DNA from: Dipteris shenzhenensis
Lineage: Eukaryota
Assembly: GCA_047967505.1 (NCBI GenBank)
Contig: CM106538.1
Reading direction: 5' to 3' (one strand)
Length of the DNA stretch: 64,000 bases
The position numbers and the translations under genes were made by a program. Each line of letters begins with the position of its first letter. Position 1 is the stretch's first letter. Positions 28,984 to 49,408 of the stretch are shown here, piece by piece. A model generated the notes under the pieces. The model made no database searches. It saw only the letters and a list, made by a program, of their open reading frames with translations, and had not been told where the DNA came from.

Positions 28984-28985
28984 AG

Positions 28986-28997
28986 TGGTATCAGAGC
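28986..28997 (+). promoter_or_regulatory. Primer-binding site (initiator Met tRNA)
   Basis: TGGTATCAGAGC 2 nt after the LTR end. Confidence 0.95.
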
Positions 28998-29072
28998 ACG
29001 GTTTCGATGGTAGACAACGAGGGAATTATGAAGAAACTAGAAGAATAAGATTCTTTGATTCGAAGGCTAACC

Positions 29073-32000
29073 ATGGAATTAAATAGATTGTCCAAAGGAA
29101 AAGGCGTAGCGGATGATGGAGCTAGTGGTGGTGATGCTGGCAGAAATTTAGAAGATGAAGAGGTCTATGTCGAGCTTGCTGCCGGGGTACCGAGCCGAAG
29201 GTGACAAAGAGGTGAGGAAGATGTTGCCGAATCTGCTCTTTTGCAAGTTTTAAGAAAGCGAAACTCTCTGAATTTGATGGTGAGAAGAAGACCGGGGAAG
29301 ATTTGGAAGCGTGGCTCGAAGAACTTGAAGATTTCTTTGCTCTACGAGAGTTTGATGAAGCGGGAAAGACTAAGATCGCGGTACTACAGTTACGTGGAGT
29401 TGCAAAACTATGGTGGAAGTCGCATGTGCAAATCCGACAACATCAAGATCAACCCATCACATGGGCTGAATTCAAAACTGCAGCTGAAAAGTGGTATTGT
29501 TCTCCACATTATTATATGGAAAAGAAGATGGAGTTCTATAATTTTAAGCAAGTACAAGAGGGAAAACATAATCTTTCTATGGATGAGTATAAAGAGAAGT
29601 TCCTGCGATTACATAAGTACGCACCTGAGGTCACAGGTGAAGCTCTTACTCACAAATTTGTGGAAGGGCTTAAGGAAGATCTTTTATATATGATGAAAGG
29701 AATAGGATCAAGTGATTTCTTGGATGCTATGGCTAAGGCTGAAAACTTTGAAAAGATGGAAGAATATAACCTAAGAAAGATAGAAAAATCAAAGTTCATT
29801 CCAACAGGTCATCGTTTTTAAGGGTCACAAGGTTCAGGTATGCCTCAACGAAAACCTGATTATTCGAATATGCCTAGATTTCAAGAGAGGAGTAGCCAAC
29901 CTGGGTACAACCAAGTGGGAAGGCCAAACTTCAATAACCGAAATTAGAATCAGAATCAAAATCAAAATCAAAGAAATAAAGGAGTTTTAAATCAGAAAAC
30001 CCGAGAAAACGCACCTTGGAAAAGTGATCGAGAGTTTATTGAATGGGCAAGAAGATTGGGATTATGTTTTAGATGTGGTGAGCAAGGTCATCAAACATTT
30101 GAGTGCGTGAATAAAGAAAAATTTAATTTTATGAAAGGACCAATGATGGGAGCAAAGACAAATCAGACGAATCCAACCATCGACGAAGCGGGGGACAAAG
30201 GTAAGTGCTTGGAACCTATGAAATGTATGGCATCTTCCACAACTCATATGCATGCGTCTGTGATTAAAACAAAACATAAGTTTTCTTATTGACTCCAGTA
30301 GCACTCATTGTTTTATATCCACGAAATTCCTCAAGACTCTAAACCTAGAAATTAGGGATCAAGTCAGAAGACTAGTCCAACTTGCTAATGGAAAATTAAA
30401 TTATACTCAAGGGCTTCTAGAAAATCTTTTAGTTTAGCACAGAGGAAGAGTAAGGGAGATTTTTATGTTATTGAGATGGGGAAGTGTGACGCTATTATTG
30501 GAATGGATTGGTTAAATGTAAACAAAGCAGTTATTGATTGTGGAGAGAGGACCGTTAGTTTTCTTAATGAAGATGGTAAAGATAAAATTATTCAAGGAGA
30601 AGAAAGAGATAGTAAACCTTCTCTCATATCAGCCATGAAATTGCTGTGAGGAGTAAGGCAGGGCTGTGACACATTCCTCGTCTTTGCTGATAAGTTAAAG
30701 GAGGGAAGTGAAGATGAGACAATACCACACTATGTTACAAAACTCCTTGAAGAATTTTCCGATGTGTTTCCTGATGATTTACCTAGGATGCCACCGCCTA
30801 GACATCTTCACCATGCTATAGAGTTAAAACCAGGCACAAGTCCTTATTGTCGGGCTCCCTATAGATTTAATGTGGATGAACTAAAGGAGTTAAATCTTCA
30901 ACTGAATGACTTGTTAAAGAAAGGGTTTATAAAACCTAGCGTTTCTCCTTGGGGTGCTCCAGCCTTATTTCAAAAGAAAAAGGATGGAACTTATAGGCTT
31001 TGCATTGACTATAGAGGATTGAATCGGCATACTATAAAGAATAAGTACCCTCTACCTCACATTGATGAATTGTTGACTCAATTGAATGGTGCCACAGTGT
31101 TCTCTAAAATTGATTTGCGATCTGGTTACCATCAGATTCGTATTAAGGAGGAGGACATTCCTAAAACTGCTTTTAGAACTCGCTATGGCCATTATGAATT
31201 TACTGTGCTTGCTTTTGGCTTGACCAATGCACCCGCTACCTTCATGTGTCTAATGAATGATGTATTCCGTGAGTATTTAGATGAATTCATTCTAGTTTTT
31301 TTGGACGACATTTTTGTATATTCCAAGAATGGGGAACAACATGAACAACATTTAAGGAAAACACTTGAAAAGTTACGGGAGCATAAACTTTATGGGAAAA
31401 AGAGCAAATGTTTCTTCGCTAAAGACAAGCTTGTGTATTTGGGTCGTGTGATTTCAAAAGATGGTATTCATATTGATCCTGACAAAGCAAGCTTATTTCA
31501 GAGTGGCCTAGACCGAAAAATATAAGGGAGGTAAAAGGCTTTATTGGCTTAGCACAATATGAGAGAAAACATATCAAAGATTTCTAAAAAATAGCCTCTC
31601 CACTTACTGATTTGACAAAACTTGACAAGCAGTTTATATGGACGGAGAAATGTCAACAAGCTTTTGATACTATGAAAGACAAAGTGGCTGAAAATTGTGT
31701 TCTCAAGATACCCCAGATGGGTAAACCTTTTGTAGTGACATGTGATGCTAGTGGTACCCAACTTGGATGTGTACTTTCTCAAGATGGTCGTGTAGTGGAA
31801 TATGAGTCTCGAAAATTAAGGAAGCATGAAGAGAACTATCCCACGCATGATCTCGAATTGGCTGCTGTTGTTCATGCATTGAAACATTGGAGACACTTTC
31901 TACTTGGTGTAAAGTTCGAACTTCGAACGGATCATGAAAGTTTGAAGTACCTCTTCACTCAACCATTATTGAATAATAGGCAAAGAGGATGGATGAATCT

Positions 32001-33544
32001 TCTTTCCGAGTATGACTTTGAGATTAAGTACATTGAGGGAAAGGAGAATAGGGTGGCTGATGCTTTAAGTAGAAGACCTTTCGTGAATGCCATCACCCTT
32101 ATTCGTTCCGATCTTGGAGAAAACATTAGAAATGAACTTGAACATGATGTTTCTTATGCACCTATTCTTCAAAAGATTGCTCAAACACCTTGTGAAAAGA
32201 TTGAAGGAAAGTCTCATTTGGTGAATGGTAATTTATATTGCCATGATAGACTTTGTGTACCATGTGATTCACCTTTGAGATGGAAAATCTTGTATGATTG
32301 TCACGATGCTCCATTTTCGGGACATGTTGGATATAACAAAACATACAGCAAGGTTCGAAAATCATTTTATTGGCCTACACTAAAGCATGGTGTTCATCGT
32401 TATGTCCAAGAATGCTTACAATGTCAACAAGTGAAGGTGGAACAACATAAGATGCCTGGTAAGATGCAACCTTTGGATATACCTTTCAGGAAGTGGGAAT
32501 CAATATCCATGGATTTTATTACTAAACTACCTACAGCTCGAGGGGGATATGATACCATTTTTGTCATCGTTGATCGTCTTACTAAAATGGCACATTTCTT
32601 TCCTATGAAAAAGACTGATGGTGCTCTTGAGGTAGCTAAGTTGTTTGTGAAAGAAATTTTCCGATTGCATGGGATGCCTAATAGTATTGTGTCAGATAGG
32701 GATTCCAAATTTACTTCTAATTTTTTGGAAGGTCACATTCAAAGCAATTGGGACGGAGCTTAAGATGAGTACAGCTTTTCACCCACAAACAGATGGAGAA
32801 ACTAAAAGGGTTAATCGCGTACTTGAGGATATGCTTCGAATGTATGTTAATGAGAAGCAAACAAATTGGACTGAATTCCTATCCTTAGCTGAGTTTGCTT
32901 ATAATAGTTCATGGCATAGCTCCATTCAAATGACTCCATTTGAAGCCATGTATGGTCAGAATTTCCACACTCTTGTGAATTTTGCAGATCCTCAAAATAG
33001 AGTCGAAGTGTCTAGACAAATGCTTGAGAGGATGGATGAGGAAGTGAAACTGATTCGGGAGAGCATTCAAAGAGCACAAGACATGCAAAAGCATTACTAT
33101 GATAAGAAGCGGTCTTTCCATGAATTTCAGATTGGGGAGATGGTATCTCTGAAAGTAATACCTAAACGCAGTAATCTAATCCTTGGGAAGGATAGAAGAC
33201 TCTCACCTCATTTCGTAGGACCTTTTCAAATCTTAAAGAGGGTGGGAACGCTTGCATATCAACTTGAACTGCATGAGAACATAAAAGTGCATCCTGTTTT
33301 CCATGTCTGTTTATTGAAATCTTATGTTGCCAACCCAACTCATATTTTTCAGGACAAGTCTAGGATCATGGAGGATGGGACTTTGAAAGTCGAACCTGAA
33401 TATATATTAGATAGGAACACGAAGCGGCTTAGGAATAGAACAATAGAAGAAGTTTTGGTTAAGTGGGATGCTTATCCTGTAGAAGATGCTTCCTGGGTAG
33501 ACTTAGATGCCTTACTTAATGAGTTTCCTTCATTTAAACTCTGA
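29073..33544 (+). pseudogene. Gypsy gag-pol (gag, CCHC knuckle, protease, RT, RNase H, integrase, chromodomain), disrupted by stops and frameshifts
   Basis: gag 29303-29821; CFRCGEQGHQTFEC knuckle; protease remnant near 30285; RT with [11 protein letters not shown] and FLDD (30764-31525); RH/INT with HHCC and SISMDFITKLP (31612-32763); GPF motif and chromodomain EVLVKWDAYPVEDASW (to 33544). Confidence 0.95.
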
Positions 33545-33546
33545 GG

Positions 33547-33573
33547 AACACACTATTCAAAATTTTTGGACTT
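33547..33573 (+). repeat. Left TIR AACACACTATTCAAAATTTTTGGACTT
   Basis: Exact reverse complement of 48209-48235. Confidence 0.95.
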
Positions 33574-33898
33574 TCTCTCTTGGTTTGGACTTTTTTTTGG
33601 AGCATATCCTTTCCACTCAACTTCACTTAGTGAGCTAAAAAATTGGGTTTTTTGAGCACTTAATGGGTCACTTATATACAAATATGGCCTTATTAAGCTA
33701 GTAAAAAGTCAAGTGGTAACCTCTAATTTTAAAAAAAATGGCTCGCTGAAGCTATAATTCCCAAACTCATGCATGGTGCCTCCATCCAATAACTATAATA
33801 ATAATAATAGTAGTCTCCTAACTCAAGTTCAATTTTAACACTATGAAGTGAAAATATGACACCATATGAAAAGAGTTTGTTGAATTCAACATATAAGT

Positions 33899-34158
33899 GG
33901 TGTATAGATACACCATTTAAAAAAAAAAAAAGAGTTTGTTGAATTCAATACATAAGTGGTGTATAGATACACCCTTTTTTAAAAAACAAACCATACAATA
34001 AATTATCTTATTGGTGGTGTATAGATACACCATTTGTATGGAAAAAAGCATACAAAACATTATCTTATGCATCTGAATCTCGTTATTGGTGGTGTATAGA
34101 TACACCATTTGTATGGAAAAAAGCATACAAAACATTATCTTATGCATCTGAATCTCGT
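33899..34158. repeat. Left subterminal repeats carrying the palindrome GGTGTATAGATACACC (4 copies)
   Basis: Copies at 33899, 33958, 34016 and 34091. Includes a ~75-bp tandem duplication overlapping the transposase stop. Confidence 0.85.
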
Positions 34159-37100
34159 TCAGAGTCATCAGACTCATGTAATGTATTTGAGCTTGATGGG
34201 TCAAGTCTTGCCAAATGATGTTTAATATGGACACGACTTGGATCAGGGATTGTGATACATTTTTCAACATTGTATCCATGCTTCTTTTTAAAACTTCGTG
34301 TCCTCGATTTCCAACAATGAATAATGCTACTGACTTCCACCTCTGTTAATCCCTCATTATTTGGAACCCATTCACGTTTCTTTTGCAAGCATCCCTCATA
34401 GAGTTGTTTTATTGTATATCTTCTCGGGAGATTTTTTAATGGCTTTGGTTCATACCATAAAGCTGTAAATGTTATAGGAGTTCCCTTGTCATCCCTTTCT
34501 ATCTTAGTAACCTTTGCAACCCAAATTGGGCCACCTTGGTCATCCAACTCTGAACCCGGATCACATGCCCAAACTGCAACAAATAGACCCTCTTCAATCT
34601 CATTACATGGTATAAACTCTGGTAAGGGTTTGTCTCCCTTCCTGCCACAATATTTTCGAGGTAAAAGGCATTCCTCTGCTTCCTCCATATCTACTAACAT
34701 ATTTATATCCAAAGGAAAACTTGGTGACCTAGCTTGTTCCGGCCAAAAGGATTCAGAGTATTCAATGCTCATTAAGTTTTCTTGTCTTTCTAAAGATTGG
34801 ATAAGTGCTTTAGTTGATTTAATTGTCTCCAAATTCTTAGTTGATTGCTCAGGATATTTCTGCATCATACTTTGAAGATGTTTAATGAAGGCTTTCAAGC
34901 CTTTCATTTCATCTATGTCAAGTGATTTGTTTTTTGCAAGAACAAATCTAGTTTCCTCCAATGGAATTATTCGTTGTAACAAAGCATATGACTCACTCCA
35001 TAAATGATCTCCATCTACTGAGTAGTGCTTCCATTGCATCACTGGAATATTGTTATGCATGTGAAACTGAAAGTAGTGTGGATTTGTGTGTCCTATTAGG
35101 GCATCATCTCCTGTTTGTAAATGTGGCTCTATAAATGCTCTCCAATCTACCATCCTCTCTAAGATAGCCACTTCTGATTCTTCCTTACGAGAACCTCCAA
35201 TTTTTTTCCCAATTCGAAATAGCATATCCTCCATTGTCAAAACATCCATTGCCTTCAACTCACCAGAGATAACACTGAAGATTTGATCTATGTCTTCATG
35301 TGTATGGCCGACAAGAAGAAAGCCAACTTCCACTTCTTCAAATATTTTCAGACCAACCAACATAGAGCATAAAGCAAATATATATTTATTCTTGTTCTCT
35401 CTCCAATAATTATCAGCTTGTATTCGCAATGTGTTAGGCAAACATCCGCGAGCATCTCTGACCTTTCTTATTGCTTTCATGATTGATGTAACAACCTGGT
35501 TACTATCATGGTCATGCAAACTATCAATCCATACATCACAAAATATTCGGTATCCATGTACTAATACTCCACACAAGTGTGTTTTTAGTCCACGTTTGCC
35601 CTCCAATGCCGGTGGGATACGTCTATATCGTGGCAAAGTGGTTGTATTCTGGTCCATGCCATCAATGGTGATGCACATGGACTTATTGACATGTGAAATA
35701 GCTTCCTCTCTCCAAGAAGCATACAACTTTCGAGCATCCTGCACATGACGTAAATGGATTGATCGCCATTTAATATATCTTCCTCGCTGCTGCTCACATT
35801 TACTATGTTCAATGGCATTTTTTAATTCATCACATGTCTTACATTTTGACATCCTTTGCTTTGATGGTGTCTTGACATGGCAAAAATCTCTACGCCAAAT
35901 TTTGTACAAGGTTGATCGTGAAATCATGCTCTCGTCTCTGTCTTGTAAAGTTTTATTGACAGTCTCTAGGACGACCTTCTTTGGCATTGGCATTCGACAC
36001 GTCCATCTAGCATTGTTTGTTGAAGATGAGGCTGTGGTAATGCATGGTCTTCGAGAACTTGCTTTAATGTTGCGGTTGCATTTATAGTGCTTCCATGGCA
36101 TTTAAGCTTGTACGTATTTCCATGAATTGTATGAATAACTTTTTCTTTCACCTCTGCCCAGATGGTCCAATATGTGCCATGTGATAGTCCAGTTAACCAT
36201 TGATATCCTCGATTGCAAATGGGTCTCCCATTAACCATGGGTTTCAATCTAGGTTTACAGTGTCCTGTGCTCAAATCTTGATTAGTGCCTTGATGAAGAA
36301 AGCATGAAAACTCTTGAAGAAGATAGTTATGTCTATTAGGCGCTGTCTTACTCCAAATACCAAGGCGTATGGCTGCACAATCATCTTTCCCAACTTTTCT
36401 AATGCAAAGTCTCTTGCAACAAACTCGCATAAGCATCCTTTCCATATTCTCCTCGGATAGCATCACATGTCTCTTTGGTTCTGGAATTGATGCCATGATT
36501 CTTCGCCTCTTCACACTCACATACTTTCTTTTTGTAAATAGTGTCTTGCGTTTTCTAGTTGTAAGACCATCAAACCTCGAATCCATTTCCCTTGAATCTT
36601 CATCTTTATAATCAAATGCTGTGTAGGCTTGAGAATTATTTGATACCTTATAATATCTTGGAAATGGCAATCTGGTCGACATGTTCATTGATGTCAATTT
36701 GTTGCTAATGCCTCTTGAATTTTGTGGTTGAACTGTTTCTCCTTCGTAACTCAAGATTCTCCCATCTATATTCTCTGGCATGCTAGCAACAATATTCTCA
36801 GATTCTCTGCCCCTTTTGCCTTGTATTGGAGTGGTAACATCATGATCATTGTCACTAATATCATCAATTCCTGTTATTGCATCACTTATCCCATTGATCT
36901 TTGCGTGTATTTTTCTTTGTGGTCCCATCTTATTATTTTCAACACATCTTCTGTCTTTTATATCAATAAGCATGTTTGAGTCACTTGCAGCACAAGACAA
37001 GTCTTCTATACCAGTGAGCCTGTTTGAGTCACTTGCAACACAGGATAAATCTTCTATACCAGTGAGCCTGTTCGAGTCACTTGCAACACATGACAAGTCT

Positions 37101-40100
37101 TCTATACCAGTGAGCCTGTTCGAGTCACTTGCAACACAAGACAAGTCTTCTATACCAGTGAGTATATTTGAGTCACTTGCAACACAAGAAACCTTTTCTG
37201 CATCAACATCTGTTACTATAATGTCCTCGATACCTGTGAGCATGCCACTATGATACTCTTGATTACTACTATAGCTTCTTATCAATTTGGATCCCATTTG
37301 TGTTATAGTCTTTTTCTTCTGATAATATTCTGTTGTGTCTTCCATGACATTGAAGGAAACTGTCTTGGGCAAACTTGATTTCAAGAAAGCTAACCCCCAT
37401 TTACAAGTACTATGAACTTGTAGTTGAGACGTAGTATTATGGACGTCTAATTGTGAAGTACTATCCATTGCATTTTGAATGACACCTGCACTAGTCAACT
37501 TAATTATCTCCACTATACAGAGAAAACTCTGAGCATAGCCCTTAAAGTTGCCAATTGCTAAAACTTCTCCGAAGCGAGATAACATCTGTACTTTTTCCCC
37601 CTGGATATAAGTTTTCTTGATATCTTGAAAGTATGTCTTTGGAACAATTTCGTCTTGGTCCCAGAGTGTTCTGTGTGCTTGCATATCAAATATATCACAT
37701 TGTAAGATATCTCCCAATGTTTCAAAGTCTCCATGTGGATATTTTAAATGTACTTCAGGATTTACAACGTTGGTGATTATCACTACACATCTTCTCTCAC
37801 CACAACGTTGAAAATGACACACATTCATAGGATCAAGACTATGAATTCGTCCAAAAGCCACCACTTCATTCTTCTCATATAACACCACATCCATACCCTC
37901 TGTTAGGGTGAATACCTGTTTTATGTATAAAAGTAAATTAGCAACTCAAAATGAACATTTAATAAATAACCATTGAGCTTATTATTACTTAATAACTTCT
38001 ATATCAAAACTAGCAGAGAAGGCATTAACCTAAACCCTACATCCTAAACTTTAAATAATTAATACCAAAACATCTTAACCACCGTAAATCCTAAACTTTA
38101 AACATTTAATTCTTAAACCCTAAATCCTAAACCCTAAAAATATAATCATAAACACTAAACCCTAAACACTAAATCTTAAATCCTAAGCCCTAAATCCTTA
38201 ACCCTAAATACTAAACCCTAAACCCTAACCTAAAATACAATCAAAATTTTATGATTTTTCTCGATTTGTACAACATGTTAGATATACCCCCAACTCAAGC
38301 AACACGTTGGGGGGTATATCCGACCTGTTGCACAAATCTAGAATTTTCTCGATTTGTGCAACAGGTCGGATATACCCCCCAACCTGTTGCTCAAGCAACA
38401 GGTTGGGGGATATACCTGCAACCTGTTGCTTAAGCAACAGGTTGGGGGGTATATCCAACCTGTAGCACAAATCGAGAATTTTCTCGATTTGTGCAATAGG
38501 TTGGATATACCCCCAACCTTGTTGCTCAAGGTTGGGGGGTATATCCTACCTGTTGCACAAATCGAGAATTTTTTCGATTTGTGCAACAGGTTGGATGTAC
38601 CCCCCAACCTGTTGCTCAAGCAACAGGTTGGGGGATATACCCACAACCTGTTGCTTAAGCAACAGGTTGGGGGGTATATCCAACCTGTTGCACAAATCGA
38701 GAATTTTCTCGATTTGTGCAAGAGGTTGGATATACCCCCAACCTTGTTGCTCAAGGTTGGGGGGTATATCCTACCTGTTGCACAAATCGAGAATTTTCTC
38801 GATTTGTGCAACAGATTGGATATACCCCCCAACCTGTTGCTTGAGCAACAGGTTGGGGTATATCCAACTTGTTGCATGAATCAAGTTGGATATACTCCAA
38901 CATGTTGCACAAATCGAGAATTTTCTTGATTTGTGCAACAGGTTGGATATACCCCCAACCTGTTGCACAAATCAAGAAAATTCTCGATTTGTGCAACATG
39001 TTGGAGTTACTCCCCAACCTGTTGCTTGAGCAACAGGTTGGGGGGTATATCCGACCTGTTGCACAAATCAAGAATTTTCTGGATTTGTGCAACATGTTGG
39101 ATATACCCCCCAACCTGTTGCTTGAGCAACAGGTTGCGGGTATATCCCCCAACCTGTTGCTTGAGCAACAGGTTGGGGGGTATATCCGACCTGTTGCATA
39201 AATCGAGAAAATTTTCGATTTGTGCAGCAGGTCGGATATACCCCCAACCTGTTGCTTAAGCAACAGGTTGGGGGTATATCTAACATGTTGCACAAATCGA
39301 GAAAAATCATAAAATTTTGATTGTATTTTAGGGTTAGGGTTTAGGGTTTAGTATTTAGGGTTAAGGATTTAGGGCTTAGGATTTAAGATTTAGTGTTTAT
39401 GATTATATTTTTAGGGTTTAGGGTTTAGGATTTAGGGTTAAAAATATAGGGTTTAGGGTTTAGATTTTAGGGTTTATGATTATTGTTTTAGGGTTTAGGA
39501 TTTAGGTTTTAAGGTTTAGTATATAAGATCATGAGCTTAGAGTGTAGAATCTAGGGTTTAGAATTGAGAATTAGGTTTTAGAATTTAAGTTATAGGGATT
39601 AGGATTTAAGGTTTAGGAATTATAACTATTATATAAGTTTAAGAGCTTAGATTATATAACCTAAGATTTAGGAAACTTTAGGATTTAAGATTTAGGGTGT
39701 AAGATTTAAGATATATAGACTATATAAAATATGCATTCTAAAGTATTTAGTTTAGATATATATAGACTATATGTTATATGCTTTCCAAAGTGTTTTGTTT
39801 ATAGGTATGATACATTGCAAAGGCTTTACTTTAAGTAAGTATAAGTCTACCTAGTCAAAGTAGGATCAAAGTATCCTACTGATTAGGGACAAGCACATAG
39901 GCTAAAAGCACACCGATTCATATTTTTTTACATTCATGCTGCATGGTGTATCAAAAGGTACGATCCTTTGCAAAGGCTTTACTTTAAGTAGTTACAAGCC
40001 TACCTACTCAAAGTATCCTACTGATTAGGAACAAGTACATAGGCTAAAAGCACACCGATTCGAAGAAGTGATGTATGCACACTGATTAGGAAGAAGTGCA

Positions 40101-41693
40101 TGGTGTATGAGAAGAAATGAAAAAGTATTTGATAAGAAATATTCGAAGAAATATATATTCCATATCATGGACATTCTAAGAAATATGTATTCCATATCAT
40201 GGATACCATGGATATCTGGTGCTTGCTAAAGTAAAAAAAAATGATATGGATGCAATGATAATGTAGTCTTCTAGATTCTATGGTTTTAAATACCTACCTT
40301 ACAAATACATTATCTAATTTTGCATTCTTTCGACTAACCAACAAGTATTATACACATGGAATCATGGATATCTGATGGTTACTAAAGTAAAAAAATGATA
40401 TGGATGCAATGATAGTGTAGTCTTCTAGATTCTATGGTTTTAAATAACTACCTTACAAATACATTATCTAATTTTTCATTTTTTGACTAACTAACAAGTA
40501 TTATACATATGGAATAAAAGCATACATGCTAAAAGTAAGTGTGTAAATTTTAATATTTTCTAAATTTTAAAATTAATTTAATTCTTTTATTGACTACTTT
40601 TTAAAATTGAAAGGTTATTAGTATATAATCTACATAATTTTAAATGTTATTAATGTATAATATTAATTATTTATATATTTATTTAAATTTATATAATAAT
40701 TAATTTATATTTATATTAGTTTTTAAGTTAATAATGTATAGAAGAGCAATATATTCACTAATTCTTCATTGTTTTAAGACTAAGTATTATATAAAGCACA
40801 TATGCTAGAAGATCTCCTTTCAATTTTTTTCTTAAATTAATGTATTTATATATTTATTTATATAATAATTATATAATATTTATATTAATTTATAGATTAA
40901 TAATATATATTTTTAGTAAAATTATATTTTAACATTAGTTAATAAAAATTTAATTAATTATATTATGGGGTAAAAATATTATAAATGGATTTCTTATATT
41001 AATAAAGTGTAGTGAGAAGAGTTTTTTGAAAAGATTTATGATTGAATTTTGTTTTGAAGTTGTTGCGTACGCAATAGGTAGGACATTTGAGTGGTTTTGA
41101 GATTGATAGAGATATTTGTAATAACGTGTAGTGAGAAGAGTTTTTTGGAGGATTTGTGGTAAAATTTTGTTTTGAAGTTGTTGCGTACGCAATAGGTAGG
41201 GAGGTTTGAGTGCTTTTGAGGTTGAGAGAGAAATGTGTTATAGATTTTTTTTTTTTTAAAAGGAGTTTTTTGGAGAGATTTATGATTGAATTTTGTTTTG
41301 GAGTTGTTGCGTACGCAATAGGTAGGGAGGTTTGAGTGGCTTTGAGGTTGAGAGAGAAATTTGTAATAGATTTTTTTTTTTGGTTGATGAGTTTTTTTGA
41401 GAGATTTATGATTAAATTTTGTTTTGAAGTTGTTGCGTACGCAATAGGTAGGGTTTGAGTGTTAAATTTTGTTTTGAAGTTATTGCGTATGCAATAGGTA
41501 GGGAGGGGTTGTGAGAGTTTGAGTTAAAGAGGAAAATTTATGGAAAAAAAGATTTAATGCTAAAATGGTTTTTTAAGTTGTTGCGTACACACAAGTTTTT
41601 TAGAAAAAAATCGGATTTGAAAAAAAATTCAAATTTATAAAAACTTGATTCTTAGAAGTTCTTGCGTACGCAACAACTCACCTCTTGCATCAT
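34140..41693 (-). CDS. DDE/DDD transposase gene (Sola-like/DUF7869-like core). Predicted exon 1 41693-41682 (MMQE), exon 2 from 37915; one frameshift near 35990
   Basis: Core motifs: CKTC, ITIDGMDQ, LRIQADNYWRENKN, FLLVGHTHEDIDQIFS. The N-terminal ORF (37894-35966) has Tnp1/EnSpm-like VAFGRIHSLDP domains and a CCKRLC...PICNR Cys region. Splice signals: AG|GTGAGT donor at 41681, CTAAT branch and CAG acceptor at 37916; the splice is in frame. Confidence 0.85.
36975..37190 (-). repeat. Coding 48-bp (16-aa) tandem repeat LTGIEDLSCVASDSNR, ~4.5 copies
   Basis: gagtcacttgca recurs every 48 bp and stays in frame in ORF 35966-37894. Confidence 0.92.
38027..38233 (+). repeat. Degenerate plant telomere-type repeats (CCCTAAA)n
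   Basis: Runs of taaaccc/taaatcc/taaacac. Confidence 0.85.
38113..39440. repeat. ~1.3-kb fold-back (inverted-repeat arms) filled with nested palindromic units
   Basis: Arm ~38113-38290 is the reverse complement of ~39270-39440. The interior is built from ACCTGTTGCTYRAGCAACAGGT and TGTTGCACAAATCGAGAATTTTCTCGATTTGTGCAACA units joined by GGGGGTATATCC/GGATATACCCCC. Confidence 0.92.
39327..39710 (+). repeat. Degenerate plant telomere-type repeats (TTTAGGG)n
   Basis: Runs of tttaggg/tttagga that decay with distance from the fold-back. Confidence 0.85.
39800..40510. repeat. Two local tandem duplications (~120-150 bp each)
   Basis: ~39805-39920 repeats at ~39957-40060; ~40207-40360 repeats at ~40362-40514. 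Confidence 0.75.
41010..41680. repeat. AT-rich ~120-bp tandem array, each unit with TGTTGCGTACGCAATA
   Basis: Motif at 41061, 41179, 41305 and 41431, with variants at 41481, 41579 and 41660. Confidence 0.9.
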
Positions 41694-41789
41694 TTTGAAA
41701 ATTTTTGCGAATCCTGCAACAGGTTGATGAGAGAAGAGAAGCGTGGAGTGTAAACGAATGATCTTTGAATGAAAGAGAGAATGAAGAAT

Positions 41790-41885
41790 GTTCTACTTAT
41801 AGTGAACCTAAAAGAACTAAAAAAACCTTAAAAACTAAAAAAAGCGGACTTGACCTAAAAGCTATCCATTTCCTATAAAACTCTA
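41790..41885. promoter_or_regulatory. Candidate bidirectional promoter of the DNA transposon
   Basis: Plus-strand TATAAAA at 41874-41880 and minus-strand TATAAG at ~41796-41801. Each is followed by a pyrimidine-rich leader and a splice donor (41964 plus; 41681 minus). Confidence 0.65.
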
Positions 41886-41963
41886 CTTCTCCTCATTCTG
41901 TCTCACAACTCTCTTATTCTCTTTCACAACTCTCTCCTGGAGCTCCACCACCTCTCCACTCAG

Positions 41964-43832
41964 GTACTCCCTCCCTCCCTCTTCTCCAACTTCCTCTCTC
42001 CCCTCCCCTTCCCGTCCCTTCCCCTCTCCTCCCGCTTCTCCCCTCCCTTCCCTTCCCCCTTCTCCTCTCCTCCCTCCCCAAGGCCCCTTCCCTTCCCATT
42101 GCCTGCTCCCTCCTCCTTCCGTCCCCTTCCTTCCCTTCCCCCTGTCGTCGCTACCCCGCTCCCACCCCCCTCCGCCCCCCTTCCCTCTTCTCCGCCCTTC
42201 CCACTCCCCTCCCTCCCTCCGTCCCGCCCTCCGCCGCACCCCCCTCCTGCCCTGTCGTTGACCCTTTGCCCCCCCTTCCCTTCGCCCTCCCCTCCGTCCC
42301 TCCCTCCCTGCCGCCCTCCCCCCCTCCGCCTCCCCCTTTCCTCCCCTCCGCCCCCAAGCCCCCCCTTCCCTTCGCCCTCACCCCCGTCCCTCCCTCCCTG
42401 CCGCCCACCCACCCTCCCCCCCTCCGCCTCCCCCTTTCCTCCCTCCGCCCCCAACCCCCCGCCCCCTCCCGCCCTCCCCACGCCCCCCCCCGCCGGCGCG
42501 CCCGCCCCCTTCCGTCGTCGGAAGGGGACGGGCGCACCGGGGGGGGGGCGTGGGGAGGGCGGGAGGGGAGGGGAGGGGGGCGGGCGTGCCGGGAGGGGGG
42601 GTTGGGGGCGTGGCGAGGGCGGGGCGGGCGCGCCGGGAGGGGGGCTGGGGGCTGAGGGAGGGGGGGGTGTGGGGAAGGGGAGGGGGGGCAAGGGCGCCCC
42701 CCCCCCACCTGTTGCGCACGCAACAGGTGGGGGGGGGGCGCCCTTGCCCCCCCTCCCCTTCCCCTCGCGCCCGCCCCCCCTCCCCTCCCGCCCTCCCCAC
42801 GCCCCCCACCGCGCACGGGGGGGGGCGTGGGGAGGGGGGGAGGGTCGGGCGTGGGGGGGGCGGGAGGGGAGGGGGGGCGTGGGTGGGGCGGGGGGCGTCG
42901 CGAGGGCGGAGGGGGGGCGGGCGCGCCGGGAGGGGGGGCTGCGGGGGGTGGGGAAGGGGAGGGGGGCGAGGGCGCCCCCCAACCTGTTGCGTGCGCAACA
43001 GGTGGGGGGGTCAATCCCCCCCACCTGTTGCGCACGCAACAGGTGGGGGGGCGGCCCCCCCCACCTGTTGCGTGCGCAACAGGTGGGGGCTTCCCCCTCC
43101 CCTCCCGCCCTCCCCACGCCCCCCACCGCGCGCCCGCCCCCCTTCCGGACGGAAGGGGGCCCGCCCCCCCCTTCCGAACGGAAGGGGGGGCGTGGCGTGG
43201 GGGGCGCGGGAGGGGAGGGGGGGCGTGGGTGGGGCGCGGGGGGGCGTGGCGAGGGCGGAGGGGGGGCGGGCACGCCGGGAGAGGGGGCTGTGGGAGGCGG
43301 GGTGTGGGGAAGGGGAGGGGGGCGAGGCGCCCCCCAACCTGTTGCAACAGGTGGGGAGCTTCACCCCACCCGCCCCCCTTCCCTCCCATCCGCCCATCCC
43401 TCCCGCCTTCCCCTTCCCTCCCCCAACCCCTCCTTCCCGCCCCCCGCGCGCCTGTCCCTCTCCCCTCCGCCCCCACGTGCCCTCCCCTCCGCCCCGTTCC
43501 CTCCCCTCCAACCCTCGCACACCCCCGTCCTCCCCACGCCCCCGCGCGCGCGTTGAGAGGGGGGTTGGGGGCGGAGGGAAGGGGGGGTGGGGGAGCGCGA
43601 GAAAGGGAGGGGGGCATCGATGCCCCCACCTGTTGCGCACGCAACAGGTACCCCTCGCCCCCCTCCGCTTCCCTCCGCCCGCCCGACCCCCGCTCCTTCC
43701 TTCCCTTGCCCCTCCCCTTCCCTCACCACATGCACACACACGTGTGGAGAGGGAAGGGGAGGGGCAAGGGAAGGGGTGTGGGGAAGGAGCAAGGGGGAGG
43801 AGGGCGGGCGGAGGGAAGAGGTGGGCGTGGGT
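41964..43832. repeat. Extremely GC-rich low-complexity tract with G/C runs and embedded palindromes (predicted 5'-UTR intron)
   Basis: Alternating C-rich and G-rich blocks. ACCTGTTGCGYRCGCAACAGGT cores at 42710, 42985, 43026, 43066 and 43631. CCCTTCCG..CGGAAGGG hairpins near 42516, 43150 and 43178. Confidence 0.9.
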
Positions 43833-44012
43833 GATTAAAATAAACTAACTAATTAAAATAAAATAATTTAAAAAAATATTTTATTTTAAAAATTAAAAAT
43901 AAATAAAACTTAAAAAATATTTAATTAAAAATTTATTTAATATTTTGAGTTTGAAAATCATTGTATTTCTCATTTTTTATTTTTGATTGTTTTTCAGAAA
44001 ACTATAGCTTTC

Positions 44013-47000
44013 ATGGCTTCCAGTTTTGGTTCCAAGGTGTCTTTCAAATACCTTGAACATGCTTGGTATTTTATGGAGCGGAAATCAAAGTATTTTTTGG
44101 TGATCACTTCAGAGAACATATCAAGCCCGAAATATTCTGCAGAGGCAGTAAGAAATGGTGGCATGGTATCAAACATCAATATTAAAGAAAACAATTTAAT
44201 AGAAATTGTGTGCCAAGGAAAGAATGACGAGGTGGTTTACAAGTTACGAGTTACTCCGAAGCACTTCTTGAAACCGTTACCAGATTCAATTGAGGGATCC
44301 CAAGAATTACTTAATGCCTTAGAAGCATTGAAGAAAATGTGGGATGCATTTCCAAGTGGTGGTGTTGAACCTTCAGGGGCATTAATTATGCCATCTATTC
44401 AAGTACCGTCAATATCTGTGGCGGTAACTCCGATAACTCCAACAAGTGTAACTACAGTATCTCCAACTGTACCTATGCCATCGACTGCTGCAACTACAGG
44501 AACAAGAAGGAGTGATCGTGGAGTAGACTCAAGTGCTATAGCTATTCCTAGAAAGAGAGCAAAAATAACTCCTACTCCACGTGGAGATCGCTCAAGTGCA
44601 GGCTATTTAAAACCTGGCGAAAAATTGGATAGCGATGAAGAGAAAGATCAGCAAGAAGAAGATACAAGTCTCGAAGACTTTTCTATAAGTGTGGCGGACT
44701 TACATCCTCCAGAGGATGAGGGATACATTTGGGGATTTTCACAATTCAGCGTGGCCACAATGCTTATTGATCGAGCTTCATTGTTCACAAATCAAAGAAA
44801 GCTCGATAAGATATTTGCACGCAAATTGTATGAAGATACAAGGAAAACAAGAACTCCCGTTGCCACTAATATCACTCTTCGTCCTATGGCGTTTAAGAGA
44901 CTTCAAGAAGATGATCCCACATTGCCTGATGTCACATTTCAAAAGCGCGTGGACTTTCTTGATGCTTTTGAGAACTTTAGAAAGAGTGACTTTGTTCGTG
45001 GAGAGGCTTTGTATCAAAGCCGATATGGGAGTGACATCGAGAAGAGATACATGCTGGCAAAGAATAGATTCTTAGAAAGATGTAGGTTTGAGCCCATTGA
45101 TGGGCAACACTTTTGTGAGGCTTGCAGGATCGCCCTTGATGAGGGAAGAAAAGGAAACTTGCCACAGATTGAGTGGATGGAAAAGTTTCAACGGGTCATT
45201 TGTCATATATGCATATTTAATGATGACTCGAAGTACATTCTAGAATCAGAGAGGCTGAACTCTGCTCCATTTAGGTTGAAAAAAAGCTCTTCTCTTTCTG
45301 AGATCTTGATAAAGGCAAGGGAGTTATGGATGGGCTGTGGAAAGCCACAAACAGTGAAGGGCAGGAGACCTACATCAGAGTACATGACAAAGAGGACTCG
45401 GTTCTATAGATGCTTGAAAGGTGTTGTAAGCAATACGCAAGGCATACCAGGTAACAAGGTTGAGGCAAAGGATTTGAACACCGCTGTTGCAAGATATAGG
45501 GATGTTACCTGCATTGTCTTCCGTGAGGAATCAGTGTTTCAGAGCATCGTGGATGTTTGCCAAGCATATGAAACAGGAAAGATATCCTTTGAGGCACCAG
45601 AGCACATTGCAACTCAGAGGAAAGAAATAAAGAAACCGATGTCTATTGTTTGGTGGAGAGCTTTAAGGTTTGTTCCAGATGCAATAACAGAAGAAGTATG
45701 CAAGAAGATCCTAAGTGGTGACTGCTTCTTTGGAAAGAAGAGCAAGCATAGCAACTTAGATGAAGTGGTCACCCGAATGATTCAAAGTGAGGCTGCTCTC
45801 TCGGCACTATTATTTTTATTGAAATCTGATGATGAGTTAGCTGGCAAGTCAATTGATGTGGATAAGAAGAAAGCACTTAGCCTAGGTCAACTCCTTGATA
45901 AAACATGGGCTAGAAAGTGGTTGGCTTCAATGGATGCAGATGCCACACCAACAAAGGATCTAAGAGCTAAAATGCCAAAGGTTGTTGAGACAGAATATAT
46001 GGACATTAAGAAAAAGGCCTTGCAGTCCAGTACGCAAGGTAGAGCAATTGGTGGTTTAGATGATGGTTCTTCATTCAGCTTCTCTTATGATATCCTGCTA
46101 TCAGAGAATGATACAAAATTTGCACACATCAATGGCATTGATACGGAGCATTTCATAACAATGAGCGGTCATGCTTGGGAGAAGCCATGCGTATTTTTCA
46201 TAAATGAATTGCAAGACCTTGCAGTGTCACAGATAGTTGAACTTGTGCGGTTTATTGTTGAAGGTCCTATGGCAGATAAGAAAAGATCAACGTTGGTCCT
46301 GTTCGTGACAGAATCACAAAGGGATGCCCTATATGCGAGTTTGACATCTTCATTTGGGTATTTACTTTCAAAAGTATACCATGGTATAGTCCTGCGTAAT
46401 CATATGACTGTCTTGGAAGGCACTGCCATTCAAGTCTTGCAGCCTTTCTTGATGTGCTTCTTATCGAGGGGTGGTGGTAATCTAATCCAAACTCCTTTAA
46501 GGACTCTCGAGCTTCATTACTTTGAGGACCATAAGGTTAAGCTTGATGCAGCAATGGTGGATTACAGAAAGCCGATGGATCCTGATGTGATACTAGAGAT
46601 GACAAAGAATTTATTGAATGATGGGTGGGAAGTAGCATTGTATCGAATGGGTTTTGCTGCTGAGAAATTGCTACGGCAAGGTAAAAATGTAAATGTTATT
46701 GATACCCCCCATCAAATTGAGTTCTTTGACACATATTACAGTTGCACTACTTTCTTTGAGGAGGAAAATGTCAAAGAAGAGGGTAGTGAGTCTGAGGGTG
46801 ATGATTCTAGCTCAGGTGATGATGAGGATGAAAGCTCTGCATCCGATGACTTACGGCAAGAAGAAATCCGCACAAAGAATAAGGGTGATCAATTGTCAAC
46901 TAGAGTCAAGGAGGTTCCACTCATCATACGGGAAGGTTCACGGCAACAAGAAGTTACAGTAGTACAGCACGTCACAGGTAAAGGTAAGGCTAAAGAGGTG

Positions 47001-47417
47001 GAAGCACTTCCCTTAAAATTAAAAGTGAGAAAGGCACCCTTGATCTTGGATGAAGGACAGGCAAGTGGATCGATCTTGGGTGAAGGACAGGCAAGTGGAT
47101 CAAGCAAGGAAGCCTTACTCAAAGAAGGTATGGACGAGGCAAAGCATGACCAGGAGGAGTTACCAGGAGGCATAGATGGTTCTTCAACCATGACCTTACA
47201 GACTCCAGAGCAGCCTACTAGTCAGGAACCTAGTAGCCAGGTCCCTACTTACCAAGAACTTGGTCATGAGACTCTAGAGCAGCCTACTAGTCAGGTGCTT
47301 GGAACTGAAGAGCAAACTAGTAAGGACCTTGCTACTGAGACTCCAGTCTTAGAGCAGCCTATTAGTCAGGACCCTGGTAGTCAAGGGCCTGGCATTGAGG
47401 ACATTGGTACTGAGTAA
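44013..47417 (+). CDS. Intact ~1134-aa transposon-borne protein: ParB/Sulfiredoxin-like domain, degenerate N4/N6 DNA-MTase-like domain and acidic repetitive tail
   Basis: Uninterrupted 3.4-kb ORF; first ATG at 44013 just after a polypyrimidine-CAG acceptor (43997). NQRKLD..FARKLYE..NITLRP..FEPIDGQHFCEA (DGQH at 45099-45110). The MTase-like pattern spans ~46119-46730. Domain calls are by eye. Confidence 0.85.
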   Translation: MASSFGSKVSFKYLEHAWYFMERKSKYFLVITSENISSPKYSAEAVRNGGMVSNINIKENNLIEIVCQGKNDEVVYKLRVTPKHFLKPLPDSIEGSQELLNALEALKKMWDAFPSGGVEPSGALIMPSIQVPSISVAVTPITPTSVTTVSPTVPMPSTAATTGTRRSDRGVDSSAIAIPRKRAKITPTPRGDRSSAGYLKPGEKLDSDEEKDQQEEDTSLEDFSISVADLHPPEDEGYIWGFSQFSVATMLIDRASLFTNQRKLDKIFARKLYEDTRKTRTPVATNITLRPMAFKRLQEDDPTLPDVTFQKRVDFLDAFENFRKSDFVRGEALYQSRYGSDIEKRYMLAKNRFLERCRFEPIDGQHFCEACRIALDEGRKGNLPQIEWMEKFQRVICHICIFNDDSKYILESERLNSAPFRLKKSSSLSEILIKARELWMGCGKPQTVKGRRPTSEYMTKRTRFYRCLKGVVSNTQGIPGNKVEAKDLNTAVARYRDVTCIVFREESVFQSIVDVCQAYETGKISFEAPEHIATQRKEIKKPMSIVWWRALRFVPDAITEEVCKKILSGDCFFGKKSKHSNLDEVVTRMIQSEAALSALLFLLKSDDELAGKSIDVDKKKALSLGQLLDKTWARKWLASMDADATPTKDLRAKMPKVVETEYMDIKKKALQSSTQGRAIGGLDDGSSFSFSYDILLSENDTKFAHINGIDTEHFITMSGHAWEKPCVFFINELQDLAVSQIVELVRFIVEGPMADKKRSTLVLFVTESQRDALYASLTSSFGYLLSKVYHGIVLRNHMTVLEGTAIQVLQPFLMCFLSRGGGNLIQTPLRTLELHYFEDHKVKLDAAMVDYRKPMDPDVILEMTKNLLNDGWEVALYRMGFAAEKLLRQGKNVNVIDTPHQIEFFDTYYSCTTFFEEENVKEEGSESEGDDSSSGDDEDESSASDDLRQEEIRTKNKGDQLSTRVKEVPLIIREGSRQQEVTVVQHVTGKGKAKEVEALPLKLKVRKAPLILDEGQASGSILGEGQASGSSKEALLKEGMDEAKHDQEELPGGIDGSSTMTLQTPEQPTSQEPSSQVPTYQELGHETLEQPTSQVLGTEEQTSKDLATETPVLEQPISQDPGSQGPGIEDIGTE

Positions 47418-47559
47418 CATGTTGGCTAACGGCTTTGTAATCACAAGTTTTGAACTTCTATGTAAAGCTAATATCTAATGAAAAGTTTACTACTTTTTTT
47501 ATTTCTTTACTCTCATTATTATGTATAAAGATTGTTTATGAGGGCCATTTTATACTTAA

Positions 47560-48135
47560 CGGTGTTTTTTAATACCAAGTGTGGTGTATATGTACACTAC
47601 TTACACATAAAAGGATTTATCTACACTACCTTTCTAAGGGCTTTATGTACACCACCTTTCTAAAAGAAATGGTGATAAAGGTGTGTGCACACCACTTATA
47701 CATAAAGGTGTTTATTTACACCACCTTTCCAAGAGAATTGGTCATGTATTGGTCATCTATTGATGTTCTTACGTGATTATGAAGATGTTTATGTAGACCA
47801 CTTTGTAAGAGAATTGGTCATCTATTATTGGTCATGTATTGATGTTCTTAGGTGATAGTTGCTCAATTCACAAGAAGTTATAAAGATGTTTATGTAGACC
47901 ACTTTGCAAGAGATTTTTGTGAAGTTATGAAAATGTTTATGTAGACCCCTTTGTAAGAGATTTGGTTATGCATTGATTTTTGTGAAGTTATGAAAATGTT
48001 TATGTAGACCCCTTTGTAAGAGATTTGGTTATGCATTGATGTTCTTAGTACTTAATTATTAAATCTTTTGTTTTGAGTTGGCAAATCTAGTTCAAAATCA
48101 TTAAATCTTTTGTTTTGAGTTGGCAAATCTAGTTA
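47560..48135. repeat. Right subterminal tandem repeats of the DNA transposon
   Basis: Repeated atgtttatgtagacc.cttt units, a duplicated aaatcttttgttttgagttggcaaatctagtt, and GGTGT-N6-ACAC[C/T] palindromes at 47583 and 47707. Confidence 0.75.
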
Positions 48136-48208
48136 AAAAACAACATTACTAGTATATTCAAAATTTTTGGACTGTTTTTTAGTCCATTTCTCAAATTGGA
48201 CTTTACAC

Positions 48209-48235
48209 AAGTCCAAAAATTTTGAATAGTGTGTT
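48209..48235 (-). repeat. Right TIR
   Basis: Reverse complement of 33547-33573. A 19-bp internal inverted copy lies at 48155-48173. Confidence 0.95.
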
Positions 48236-48250
48236 GAGGATAGAGTTCCT

Positions 48251-48264
48251 GAAGAGGGAACGGA
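48251..48264 (+). promoter_or_regulatory. Polypurine tract of the Gypsy element
   Basis: GAAGAGGGAACGGA immediately before the 3' LTR TG. Confidence 0.9.
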
Positions 48265-49408
48265 TGTGACGCTCCAATTTTGTATATGAAATATTTTGGA
48301 ATATATATCACATATAGTGTTCAAAAAGGATGGTTTTGATGTTTTGAAGGTTTTGGGAAAGTTTGGTGTTGGTCGAAAAATTTTGGTTTTTGTCCATTTT
48401 GGTGTCGGCTGGATTTTGCGGCTTGATTTGAGTTGGTTAGAGAAATAATTTGAAGAAACTCTGTATGAGAGAGTTTTAGATCTTGTTGAGTAGAAAAACT
48501 TTGTCCTAGTGAAAAATTTGTGGTTCACTCGTTTGCATGCCTGTATGGAGGTTAGAAGTTGCTTACAAAGTGGTTTTGAGCTAAAAGTGCATCTAGATTT
48601 CCGTGTCAAGAGTTGCAGGCATTAGACGGAGGTCGAGATGGAAGAGTTAGCCATGAAAGGTCAAATGCAAAGGGAAGGAAGAGGGTCCAATCTTCGAGAT
48701 GAGCTATTGAGCTTGTCCATTGGATCTACGAGGTAGGAGTGGTGATGCTCCGAACAGGGCCGTTTTCATGCCTTTAAAAAAAAAGAAAAAAAAAAGAAAA
48801 AAAGAGACACGTCGAGATTCCGTACGCATTTGCTATCCTAAGTGCACGCTAAAAGAAGATGAAAAGCACATGCACGCTTTTCGAGAAAAGCTGTTTTTGG
48901 CCGATTTTGGAGGCTTTTGGCTGCTTATTTTGGAGTCGTGAAAGGCTATAAAAGAAGAGGAGATCGTGAGAAGGAGAACACACAATCCAACGCACGCATA
49001 TCGAGGCTGAGCGAAAGAGAAGAGAAGGCATGCATCTCGAGGTTGCTTGAGCGAAGAGAAGGCACGCATATCGAGGCACTGTGAAAGTGACAATAGCGTA
49101 GGCGAATCGAGGCAGCGCAAAGAAGAAGATAAGATCAAGATATTTTGAGAGTGAGAGTGAGAGTGTGATTGAGATTTGATGATTGGATCATCTGATTTGA
49201 ACATCTTCATGCGAGTGAGAGTGAGAGTGAGAGTGAGATAGCTCGGGGGTGGACGGGTGGTATCGAGCTCCTTCACAGAGTGATTCTTCTCCAAAATTAT
49301 TCTAAAGACTCATCAGTTTGATTCATACTACAATCTCTCTTCTTGTTCATTCGTGATTATTATCTTGCTACAATTTTGATCGTGATTGTGAAAGAACGGT
49401 GCGTGACA
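48265..49408 (+). repeat. 3' LTR (1144 bp)
   Basis: Direct repeat of 27835-28983, followed by TSD GGAAG. Confidence 0.97.

Follow-up and report, generated by a model that had tools for sequence, protein, structure and literature searches.

A two-gene DNA transposon of Dipteris shenzhenensis with a predicted ParB-type accessory protein and element-specific palindrome arrays

The 64,000-nucleotide stretch of contig CM106538.1 from Dipteris shenzhenensis (assembly GCA_047967505.1) that was analyzed here, referred to below as the window, contains a 14.7-kb element composed of two divergent genes, one on each strand, with arrays of palindromes between them. This arrangement raises the question whether the element encodes a protein that recognizes the element's own internal sites. 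A first-pass annotation of the sequence had paired a Sola-like transposase with a ParB/methyltransferase (MTase)-like protein and about twenty 16-bp palindromes, and had proposed an undescribed transposon system. Part of this interpretation stood. The two-gene transposon bounded by terminal inverted repeats (TIRs) is real, the product of the second open reading frame (ORF2) has a predicted ParB-type fold, and the palindromes are real, specific to the element and adjacent to both genes. The MTase assignment was not supported, and the claim of an undescribed system had to be given up.

The ends of the element were unambiguous. The left TIR AACACACTATTCAAAATTTTTGGACTT (33547–33573, plus strand) is complementary to the right TIR (48209–48235, minus strand) at 27 of 27 bases, and the tetranucleotide GAGG is found on both sides as a target-site duplication (TSD); perfect 27-bp TIRs and a TSD had also been described in the first-pass annotation. 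A search of the window for the TIR with up to 3 mismatches recovered these two copies only, with 0 expected. A second copy of any part of the element was not found within the 64-kb window. A search of sequencing runs listed two DNA runs with small shares (0.16 and 0.14) and no RNA run. The 14.7-kb element is a genuine two-gene cut-and-paste TIR DNA transposon. The coordinates of its features are collected in Table 1.

Fourteen exact TGTTGC-N4-GCAACA sites were counted, all of them between 38385 and 43646. The expected number was 0.01, and none of 100 shuffled sequences reached 14. When up to 2 mismatches were allowed, the window contained 23 sites against 2.73 expected and a maximum of 8 in any shuffle. 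Twenty of these 23 sites lie between 38385 and 43646, one is located inside ORF2 (45671) and two lie outside the element. The intergenic cores, 14 exact and 6 near-exact, agree in number with the initial estimate of about twenty, but the 16-mers are only the cores of longer palindromes of 36–50 bp with arms of up to 83 nt. The other 49 kb of the window showed chance-level near-matches only, and all window occurrences of CCTGTTGC (22/22) and GCAACAGG (19/19) fall inside the element. The motif is missing from the TIRs and the subterminal regions.

The cores are distributed over three arrays. In array a, 50-bp palindromes of the form GGATATACCCCCCAACCTGTTGC-N4-GCAACAGGTTGGGGGGTATATCC alternate with palindromes that have the same half-site and a 26-bp spacer. 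In array c the GC content, measured in 400-bp windows, is 55% at the left edge and then 74–84%, and one core occupies the center of a palindrome with 83-nt arms (42634–42716 and 42719–42801; 83% complementarity). Arrays a and c, which are 4.5 kb apart and lie in a 43% GC and an 80% GC context, respectively, have one and the same extended 16-nt half-site, CCCCCCAACCTGTTGC. This half-site was drawn by eye from identical stretches of at least 13 nt. The distance between array a and the first ATG in the transposase frame is about 360 bp, and about 180 bp separate array c from the ATG of ORF2 downstream of it. The palindromes are element-specific, they adjoin both genes, and their half-site is constant while the surrounding sequence differs.

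Several further properties of the intergenic region were recorded. The telomere-type arrays bracket block A and form with it a foldback structure of about 1.7 kb. The large inverted structure has arms of 221 nt at 92% complementarity, and tandem periods of 225, 126 and about 40 bp are present. Between 41850 and 43835 the GC content rises to 84%, compared to 25–45% in the surrounding region, and runs of the GGGGAGGGG type occur. Judged from its sequence, this segment would be expected to have G-quadruplex and i-motif potential on opposite strands directly upstream of ORF2. No Rfam family was detected between 33000 and 48800.

Table 1. Positions of the transposon features within the 64-kb window.
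Feature	Position	Strand	Basis or remark
Left TSD, GAGG	33543–33546		Identical 4 bases at both ends
Left TIR, 27 bp	33547–33573	+	27/27 versus right end
Transposase gene, two frames, with putative DUF7869 catalytic core	34140–37894	-	PF25273 match and homologue alignment
48-bp tandem repeat in transposase ORF, 4.9 copies	36953–37189	-	90% matches
Degenerate telomere-like (CCCTAAA)n, left arm of large inverted structure	38020–38235
Palindrome block A (array a), about 43% GC	38256–39310		9 exact cores in 50-bp palindromes; 225-bp period
Degenerate telomere-like (TTTAGGG)n	39327–39700		Inverted relative to 38020–38235
Array b, 126-bp tandem repeat, 3.6 copies (41013–41453), and nearby units	41013–41675		6 near-exact cores, TGTTGCGTACGCAATA type
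Array c, GC-rich block with alternating C-rich and G-rich arms	41850–43835		5 exact cores
ORF2, 1134 aa, no intron needed	44013–47417	+	ATG 44013 to stop 47417, one open frame
Predicted ParB N-terminal-domain-like fold and helical region after it	44718–45575	+	P0003 residues 235–520; DGQH 362–365
3' subterminal tandem repeats, 26-, 79-, 63- and 42-bp units	47613–48139
Right TIR, 27 bp	48209–48235	-	27/27 versus left end
Right TSD, GAGG	48236–48239		Identical 4 bases at both ends

The protein encoded by ORF2 was analyzed as P0003, its translation from the second codon. It had no match in Pfam, PHROGs, PADLOC or NCBIfam, and searches of the PDB sequences with the single sequence and with a profile were also negative. 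An exhaustive HMMER search of 1.84 billion representative proteins yielded 47 relatives at E ≤ 1e-3, 22 at E ≤ 1e-10 and 4 at E ≤ 1e-30. Only 5 of the 47 were at least 500 aa long, and a 1199-aa cluster member was added to this set. Several fragments with 88–93% identity probably represent other copies of the same transposon family. One fragment with 44% identity originates from the lycophyte Diphasiastrum complanatum. The long relatives (1097–1488 aa) share the whole layout of the protein including a small N-terminal domain and the acidic tail, together with the motifs GYxWG, TN(H/Q)R, LTLRPI, WEPVDGQH..AC and VVYDD..FY..S.R.N. Residues 1–110 (44016–44345) resemble the N-termini of the long non-plant relatives P0024, P0027 and P0051 in a region with an HGWW-type motif; thus, the family appears to share a further small N-terminal domain. 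Scans with the ORF2 alignment gave 25 pattern matches in metagenome loci, none of which was confirmed, and no match in viral contigs. Matches of the family profile to the chromo shadow domain (E 0.09–0.5) were below significance and were dismissed. By its sequence, ORF2 appears to be the accessory protein of an unnamed eukaryotic family.

A fold was assigned to part of ORF2 by structure prediction. Residues 235–520 were modelled together with 25 relatives and obtained a predicted local distance difference test (pLDDT) score of 84.2. Comparison of this model with 48,161 PDB representatives using VIA-align gave eight chains with a Z score of at least 5, all of which have the ParB/sulfiredoxin (Srx) fold: PadC (9.2), KorB (8.9), pNOB8 ParB-N (7.7), Arabidopsis sulfiredoxin (7.5), the serine kinase SerK (7.0), human Srx (6.0), SbnI (5.6) and Atu1540 (5.5). 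The next row had a Z score of 4.7. In a second comparison, the best 988 chains found by Foldseek were re-aligned to the 235–520 model. The best of these 988 chains was Myxococcus ParB with bound CTPγS, a cytidine triphosphate (CTP) analogue (7bnr), with a Z score of 10.6 and a root-mean-square deviation (rmsd) of 1.8 Å over 96 residues. Bacillus ParB-CDP (6sdk, Z 10.3), Noc (7ng0, Z 10.3) and Caulobacter ParB (7bm8, Z 9.8) were close to this value, and these top matches had rmsd values of 1.8–2.2 Å over 96–99 residues. Longer alignments were obtained with KorB (8qa9, Z 9.0, 140 residues, reaching model residue 260) and pNOB8 ParB-N (Z 8.6, 161 residues, reaching model residue 284). All ten best entries have the ParB/Srx fold, and the next unrelated entry had a Z score of 4.2. 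Foldseek itself ranked ParB and KorB first (best E 0.035, probability 0.95). In the BFVD viral library, 9 of the top 12 rows were named ParB, Spo0J, Noc or GmrSD-N (best E 3.8e-3). A larger 731-residue model of ORF2 recovered the same ParB/Srx set with lower Z scores. According to these models, residues 235–520 of ORF2 are predicted to have the alpha/beta fold of the ParB N-terminal domain (ParB/Srx), with the nucleotide-binding ParB, Noc and KorB domains rather than sulfiredoxin as best matches. The ParB-like character claimed at first pass is borne out at the level of the fold.

In the alignment of 26 relatives the conserved residues form three stretches: N259 (15/15) and R261 (12/15); E359 (17/18), G363 (15/18), Q364 (16/18) and H365 (17/18); and Y407 (18/19) and N415 (18/18). 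By eye, these stretches were placed at boxes I–III of the ParB layout. In the model the ParB-like domain is interrupted by a helical insert of about 45 residues. A predicted homodimer of the domain received a score of 0.05. Behind the ParB-type domain, the protein continues with a helical region and an alpha/beta region of poor model quality, and it ends in an acidic tail. The alpha/beta part had low confidence in the 731-residue model, with many 10-residue blocks below a pLDDT of 60, and its fold matches were scattered: an S-adenosylmethionine-dependent MTase (1m6e, Z 5.3) appeared among the signal recognition particle receptor, gephyrin and BglII. Pfam detected no MTase family in ORF2 and 35 relatives, and PHROG, PADLOC and NCBIfam detected none in ORF2. 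The profile of the C-terminal part had no match in the PDB, and a language-model search with this part gave no usable match. These searches did not support the MTase-like character ascribed to ORF2.

The gene on the opposite strand was identified as a transposase gene. It consists of an upstream frame (35966–37945) and an overlapping downstream frame (34140–36101) on the minus strand, with the first ATG of the upstream frame at 37894. The downstream frame matches the Pfam domain DUF7869 (PF25273) with an E value of 6.9e-52. In a large protein collection, PF25273 was present in 109 of 109 homologues among the matches listed, and none of these 109 carried a transposase annotation. Named homologues belong to echinoderms, bivalves, amphioxus, a hemichordate, a sea anemone, Chara braunii and the liverwort Riccia. 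We found no mention of DUF7869 in the literature searched. Homologues align continuously through both frames, and the alignment to the closest of them, P0053 (61% identity), changes frame at about 35987–36000 with about six residues missing. Consequently, this copy of the transposase gene appears to carry a frameshifting lesion near 35987–36000, unless the assembly is in error. The two divergent genes of the first-pass annotation were both recovered on opposite strands, but the transposase frame is split.

In an alignment of 11 DUF7869 proteins D147/D150, D230 and D270 were invariant and D272 was near-invariant. These aspartates are compatible with a DDD arrangement, in which their catalytic role would be putative. 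Bao et al. are said to have described a DDD catalytic triad for Sola in 2009. A Sola-type transposon is plausible and indeed probable from the DUF7869 match, the invariant aspartates and the 4-bp TSD. A TSD of 4 bp is a feature of the Sola superfamily, and GAGG on both sides of this single insertion agrees with it. Passages of one report name AWWT as the target hallmark of Sola1 (PMC3845634). GAGG is not AWWT, although one insertion cannot define a preference. A scan of metagenome loci with the transposase alignment found three loci of 1.6–4.4 kb, too short to show a neighbouring gene. Two side observations concern the N-terminal half of the transposase frame. The 48-bp repeat encodes a 16-residue peptide repeat, LTGIEDLSCVASDSNR. 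The N-terminus (37700–37894, minus strand) has a weak similarity to Transposase_23 (TNP1/En/Spm; E 0.032), which is below the Pfam cut-off and was not relied on; it hints at a domain in common with CACTA accessory proteins.

What, then, might ORF2 do? The reading that we favour, with a probability of roughly 0.4, is that ORF2 would bind the palindromes of its own element as a dimer and mark or regulate this element. The dimer would recognize the arrays directly upstream of both genes via the half-site CCCCCCAACCTGTTGC. Bound ORF2 may control the two divergent promoters, or it may counter silencing by the host. It may also act through nucleotide-dependent clamping and spreading, in the manner of ParB and KorB. 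We infer DNA binding, the identity of the binder, the use of nucleotide and the consequence for the element. The load-and-spread step is the boldest and least supported part of the proposal because the arginine motif is missing from ORF2.

A number of observations weigh against this proposal. Neither the PDB nor BFVD contained a Foldseek match of the ORF2 model at E ≤ 1e-3, and ORF2 with 35 aligned members had no match to a ParB family at the sequence level in Pfam at E ≤ 10. Box II of ParB has the motif GERR, whose arginines are those of GERRxRA. At the position corresponding to box II by topology, ORF2 has a conserved E-P-x-D-G-Q-H followed by a hydrophobic residue, without arginines. The use of CTP by ORF2 is doubtful because DGQH replaces these arginines. 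A helix-turn-helix after the ParB domain is suggested solely by the longer KorB and pNOB8 alignments, and the VIA-align rows contained no independent helix-turn-helix match above Z 4.7. The sites are far longer than parS (36–50 bp, arms of up to 83 nt), and the palindromes in whose centers they lie can form hairpins; a structural function, or one as an RNA hairpin, would be as consistent with this as binding. Finally, the transposase is frameshifted; therefore, this copy of the element may be decaying.

The arrays could also be cis-elements for another binder, either the N-terminal zinc-finger region of the transposase or host transcription factors, which we regard as possible but rather unlikely. 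They would then act as enhancer or promoter arrays for both genes, and ORF2 would act elsewhere, for instance with a nucleotide-dependent enzymatic activity or by clamping DNA non-specifically. One array stands upstream of each gene, as such a role would have it, and CAACAG is part of the half-site, as is CACCTG in the GC block; these resemble MYB and E-box cores. The CCCTAAA/TTTAGGG arrays that flank block A presumably resemble telo-box promoter elements, and the lack of GERR arginines and of a clear helix-turn-helix in ORF2 points the same way. However, neither the TIRs nor the subterminal regions contain the motif, and the end-binding specificity of the transposase is therefore probably different. 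A conserved half-site of 16 nt is also long for a plant transcription-factor site. In red algae, unrelated transposon families repeatedly combine a ParB-domain accessory gene with neighbouring inverted-repeat arrays, as far as the passages on these families go. Alternatively, the internal repeats may be non-functional or driven by structure, that is, foldback or satellite sequences produced by slippage and palindrome amplification, whose hairpin RNAs or small RNAs might let the host silence the transposon family. We judge this unlikely. It would account for cores centered in long palindromes (83-nt arms at 83%, 221-nt arms at 92%), for the tandem periods, for the location of block A between inverted degenerate telomere-like arrays and for the extreme composition of up to 84% GC in 400-bp windows. 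Yet an extended half-site preserved across three arrays that differ strongly in composition is not what simple local amplification predicts, and the remaining 49 kb of the window contain nothing of the motif but the chance-level near-matches.

Another reading regards ORF2 as a passenger, a captured gene or part of a nested mobile element with no role in the transposon. The relatives of ORF2 are mostly isolated fragments or short contigs without visible transposase neighbours, and the three related transposase loci found in metagenomes do not extend far enough for a neighbouring gene to be visible, which leaves room for such an origin. But inverted repeats of at least 13 nt that bracket ORF2, as expected for the TIRs of a nested element, were not found besides the palindrome motif, and ORF2 is fully open over 1134 codons inside an element with perfect ends. 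Moreover, passages on an Ectocarpus Sola1 family describe a gene that corresponds to ORF2 in size class, in orientation and in the type of its N-terminal domain. A passenger ORF2 is very improbable in our view. A far more ambitious reading than binding of the own palindromes was also considered. In this reading ORF2 would belong to a eukaryote-wide family of transposon-borne ParB-type nucleotide-gated clamps that load at internal palindromes, spread to block silencing or to handle the excised copy, and are remotely related to DUF3723 of the Starship elements. Relatives of ORF2 with 1100–1500 aa and the same order of N-terminal, ParB-like and C-terminal parts are found in contigs of microbial eukaryotes, and one relative is found in a lycophyte. 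DUF3723 was the nearest neighbour of ORF2 residues 240–940 by language-model (ESM) features, with a score of 0.94 and 170 of 256 features shared. None of 35 ORF2-family members (0/35) matched PF12520 at E ≤ 10, and a link between DUF3723 and ParB was not found in the literature. The kinship of DUF3723 and ORF2 is a lead only, and we hold the clamp-family reading to be quite improbable.

Elements of similar design are in print. Passages of a study on brown algae describe Sola1-1_Ec32 from Ectocarpus, a Sola1 family of 21.5 kb with a 1104-aa ParB+MTase gene opposite the transposase; such proteins are regarded there as a possible new accessory class that binds and modifies its own transposon, and green- and red-algal cases are cited (PMC12477816). 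As far as this description goes, Sola1-1_Ec32 and the present element are both large TIR elements (21.5 versus 14.7 kb) with an accessory gene on the strand opposite the transposase, and both accessory proteins (1104 versus 1134 aa) have a ParB-like domain. They differ in that the Ectocarpus protein is reported to have a recognizable N4C/N6A DNA methyltransferase domain and none was detected in ORF2, that its host is a brown alga and not a green-lineage plant, and that the TSD found here is GAGG, not AWWT. Palindrome arrays are present here, whereas the passages of PMC12477816 on Sola1-1_Ec32 do not mention them. PAG3 of the red-algal Plavaka elements (Bostrychia) has, in the passages of the corresponding preprint, a ParB N-domain and a 2-oxoglutarate (2OG) oxygenase and lies beside tandem inverted-repeat arrays (bioRxiv 10.1101/2025.02.11.637652). 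Its ParB-like domain, like that of ORF2, was recognized by remote methods only, with 7BNR_B as the best HHpred match of PAG3 and 7bnr_A as the best VIA match of ORF2. In both cases inverted-repeat arrays adjoin the gene, and the same passages put forward a self-binding hypothesis and the VANDAL analogy (bioRxiv 10.1101/2025.02.11.637652). According to this description, the transposase of PAG3 elements is of the EnSpm/Plavaka superfamily in contrast to DUF7869 here, the C-terminal part is 2OG oxygenase-like in PAG3 and unassigned in ORF2, and Plavaka has three accessory genes, compared to one in this element. With the Ectocarpus ParB+MTase gene (PMC12477816) and the Bostrychia ParB genes beside arrays (bioRxiv 10.1101/2025.02.11.637652) described in these passages, the system can no longer be called undescribed. 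It is a variant of a design reported in 2025 in brown and red algae, and not a categorically new system.

Other systems are more distant. The bacterial ParB, Noc and KorB clamps resemble ORF2 in the N-terminal fold (Z 9–10.6, rmsd 1.8–2.2 Å over 96–99 residues), in boxes I–III as placed by eye, and in the clustered palindromic sites that adjoin the gene. The bacterial site parS is a 16-bp palindrome that starts with TGTT and ends with AACA. In contrast to bacterial ParB, ORF2 has no sequence-level similarity, DGQH in place of GERR, the helical insert of about 45 residues and no ParA partner, and it is about 4 times longer with far longer palindromic sites. VANC of the Arabidopsis VANDAL elements (Mutator-like) is characterized in passages of the preprint as an accessory protein that targets short clustered motifs of its family and changes the epigenetic state (bioRxiv 10.1101/2025.02.11.637652). 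On this account VANC and ORF2 follow the same self-targeting logic with unrelated protein folds and transposon superfamilies; the function of VANC was shown experimentally, whereas that of ORF2 is proposed here. Passages on the fungal Starship elements present DUF3723 (PF12520) as a conserved accessory gene of unknown function (PMC9156397), and to that extent it is, like ORF2, an accessory gene on large eukaryotic transposons. Fusions of ParB-HTH with Dam are listed in chlorophytes and chytrids in passages of Iyer et al. (PMC4738411). In the literature searched, a ParB-accessory transposon of this kind was not found in land plants or their close relatives. The present element differs from the described cases in host lineage, in its orphan accessory family, in the unassigned C-terminal part and in its unusually explicit cis-array architecture.

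The insertion context of the transposon was also resolved. The transposon lies in a Ty3/chromovirus retroelement, where the chromodomain ORF has its 3' end. Upstream of the insertion Pfam identified gag, RT, RNase H, integrase, SH3_Tf2-1 and Chromo domains. This host retroelement spans 27835–33546 and 48240–48539 and continues to the right, with pol in several frames. The sequence just right of the transposon (48265–48539) is 97.5% identical over 275 bp to 27835–28109, and this repeat pair is read as the probable long terminal repeats of the host chromovirus. Removal of the element and one GAGG in silico gave the rejoined frame ...FPSFKL / EDRVPEEG..., by eye a typical chromovirus pol end. The transposon would have entered the chromovirus after the retroelement's own integration. 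A CACTA reading of the transposon termini, with CACTA located 4 nt inside the TIR, was rejected because the inverted repeat continues outwards for another 4 nt and, with CACTA as the terminus, the flanking bases would no longer be directly repeated. Upstream of the retroelement an ORF at 25715–26272 (minus strand) has a short match to the ABA/WDS-induced protein family (PF02496, E 3.4e-5, just under the curated cut-off) and may be a fragment of a plant stress gene. This weak match, the TTTAGGG-type repeats and the lycophyte homologue assign the window to the green plant lineage.

To our knowledge, self-recognizing accessory proteins of transposons are known experimentally only for VANDAL/VANC. 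A self-recognition role was proposed in 2025 for the ParB-domain accessory genes of giant algal transposons, and we know of no case that has yet been tested at the bench. With its intact 1134-codon gene, a confidently modelled ParB-type domain, about 20 sites and a precise long half-site, the element described here provides a compact test case in the green plant lineage. As far as the passages on the algal elements go, the ParB-like head is common to the brown-algal, the red-algal and the present cases, and adjacent inverted repeats are reported for the red-algal and the present case. The C-terminal "effector" part is variable, an MTase in brown algae, a 2OG oxygenase in red algae and unassigned in ORF2. 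If the clamp-family reading were true, a ParB-like self-recognition module would recur as an accessory among large eukaryotic transposons whose transposition enzymes are unrelated.

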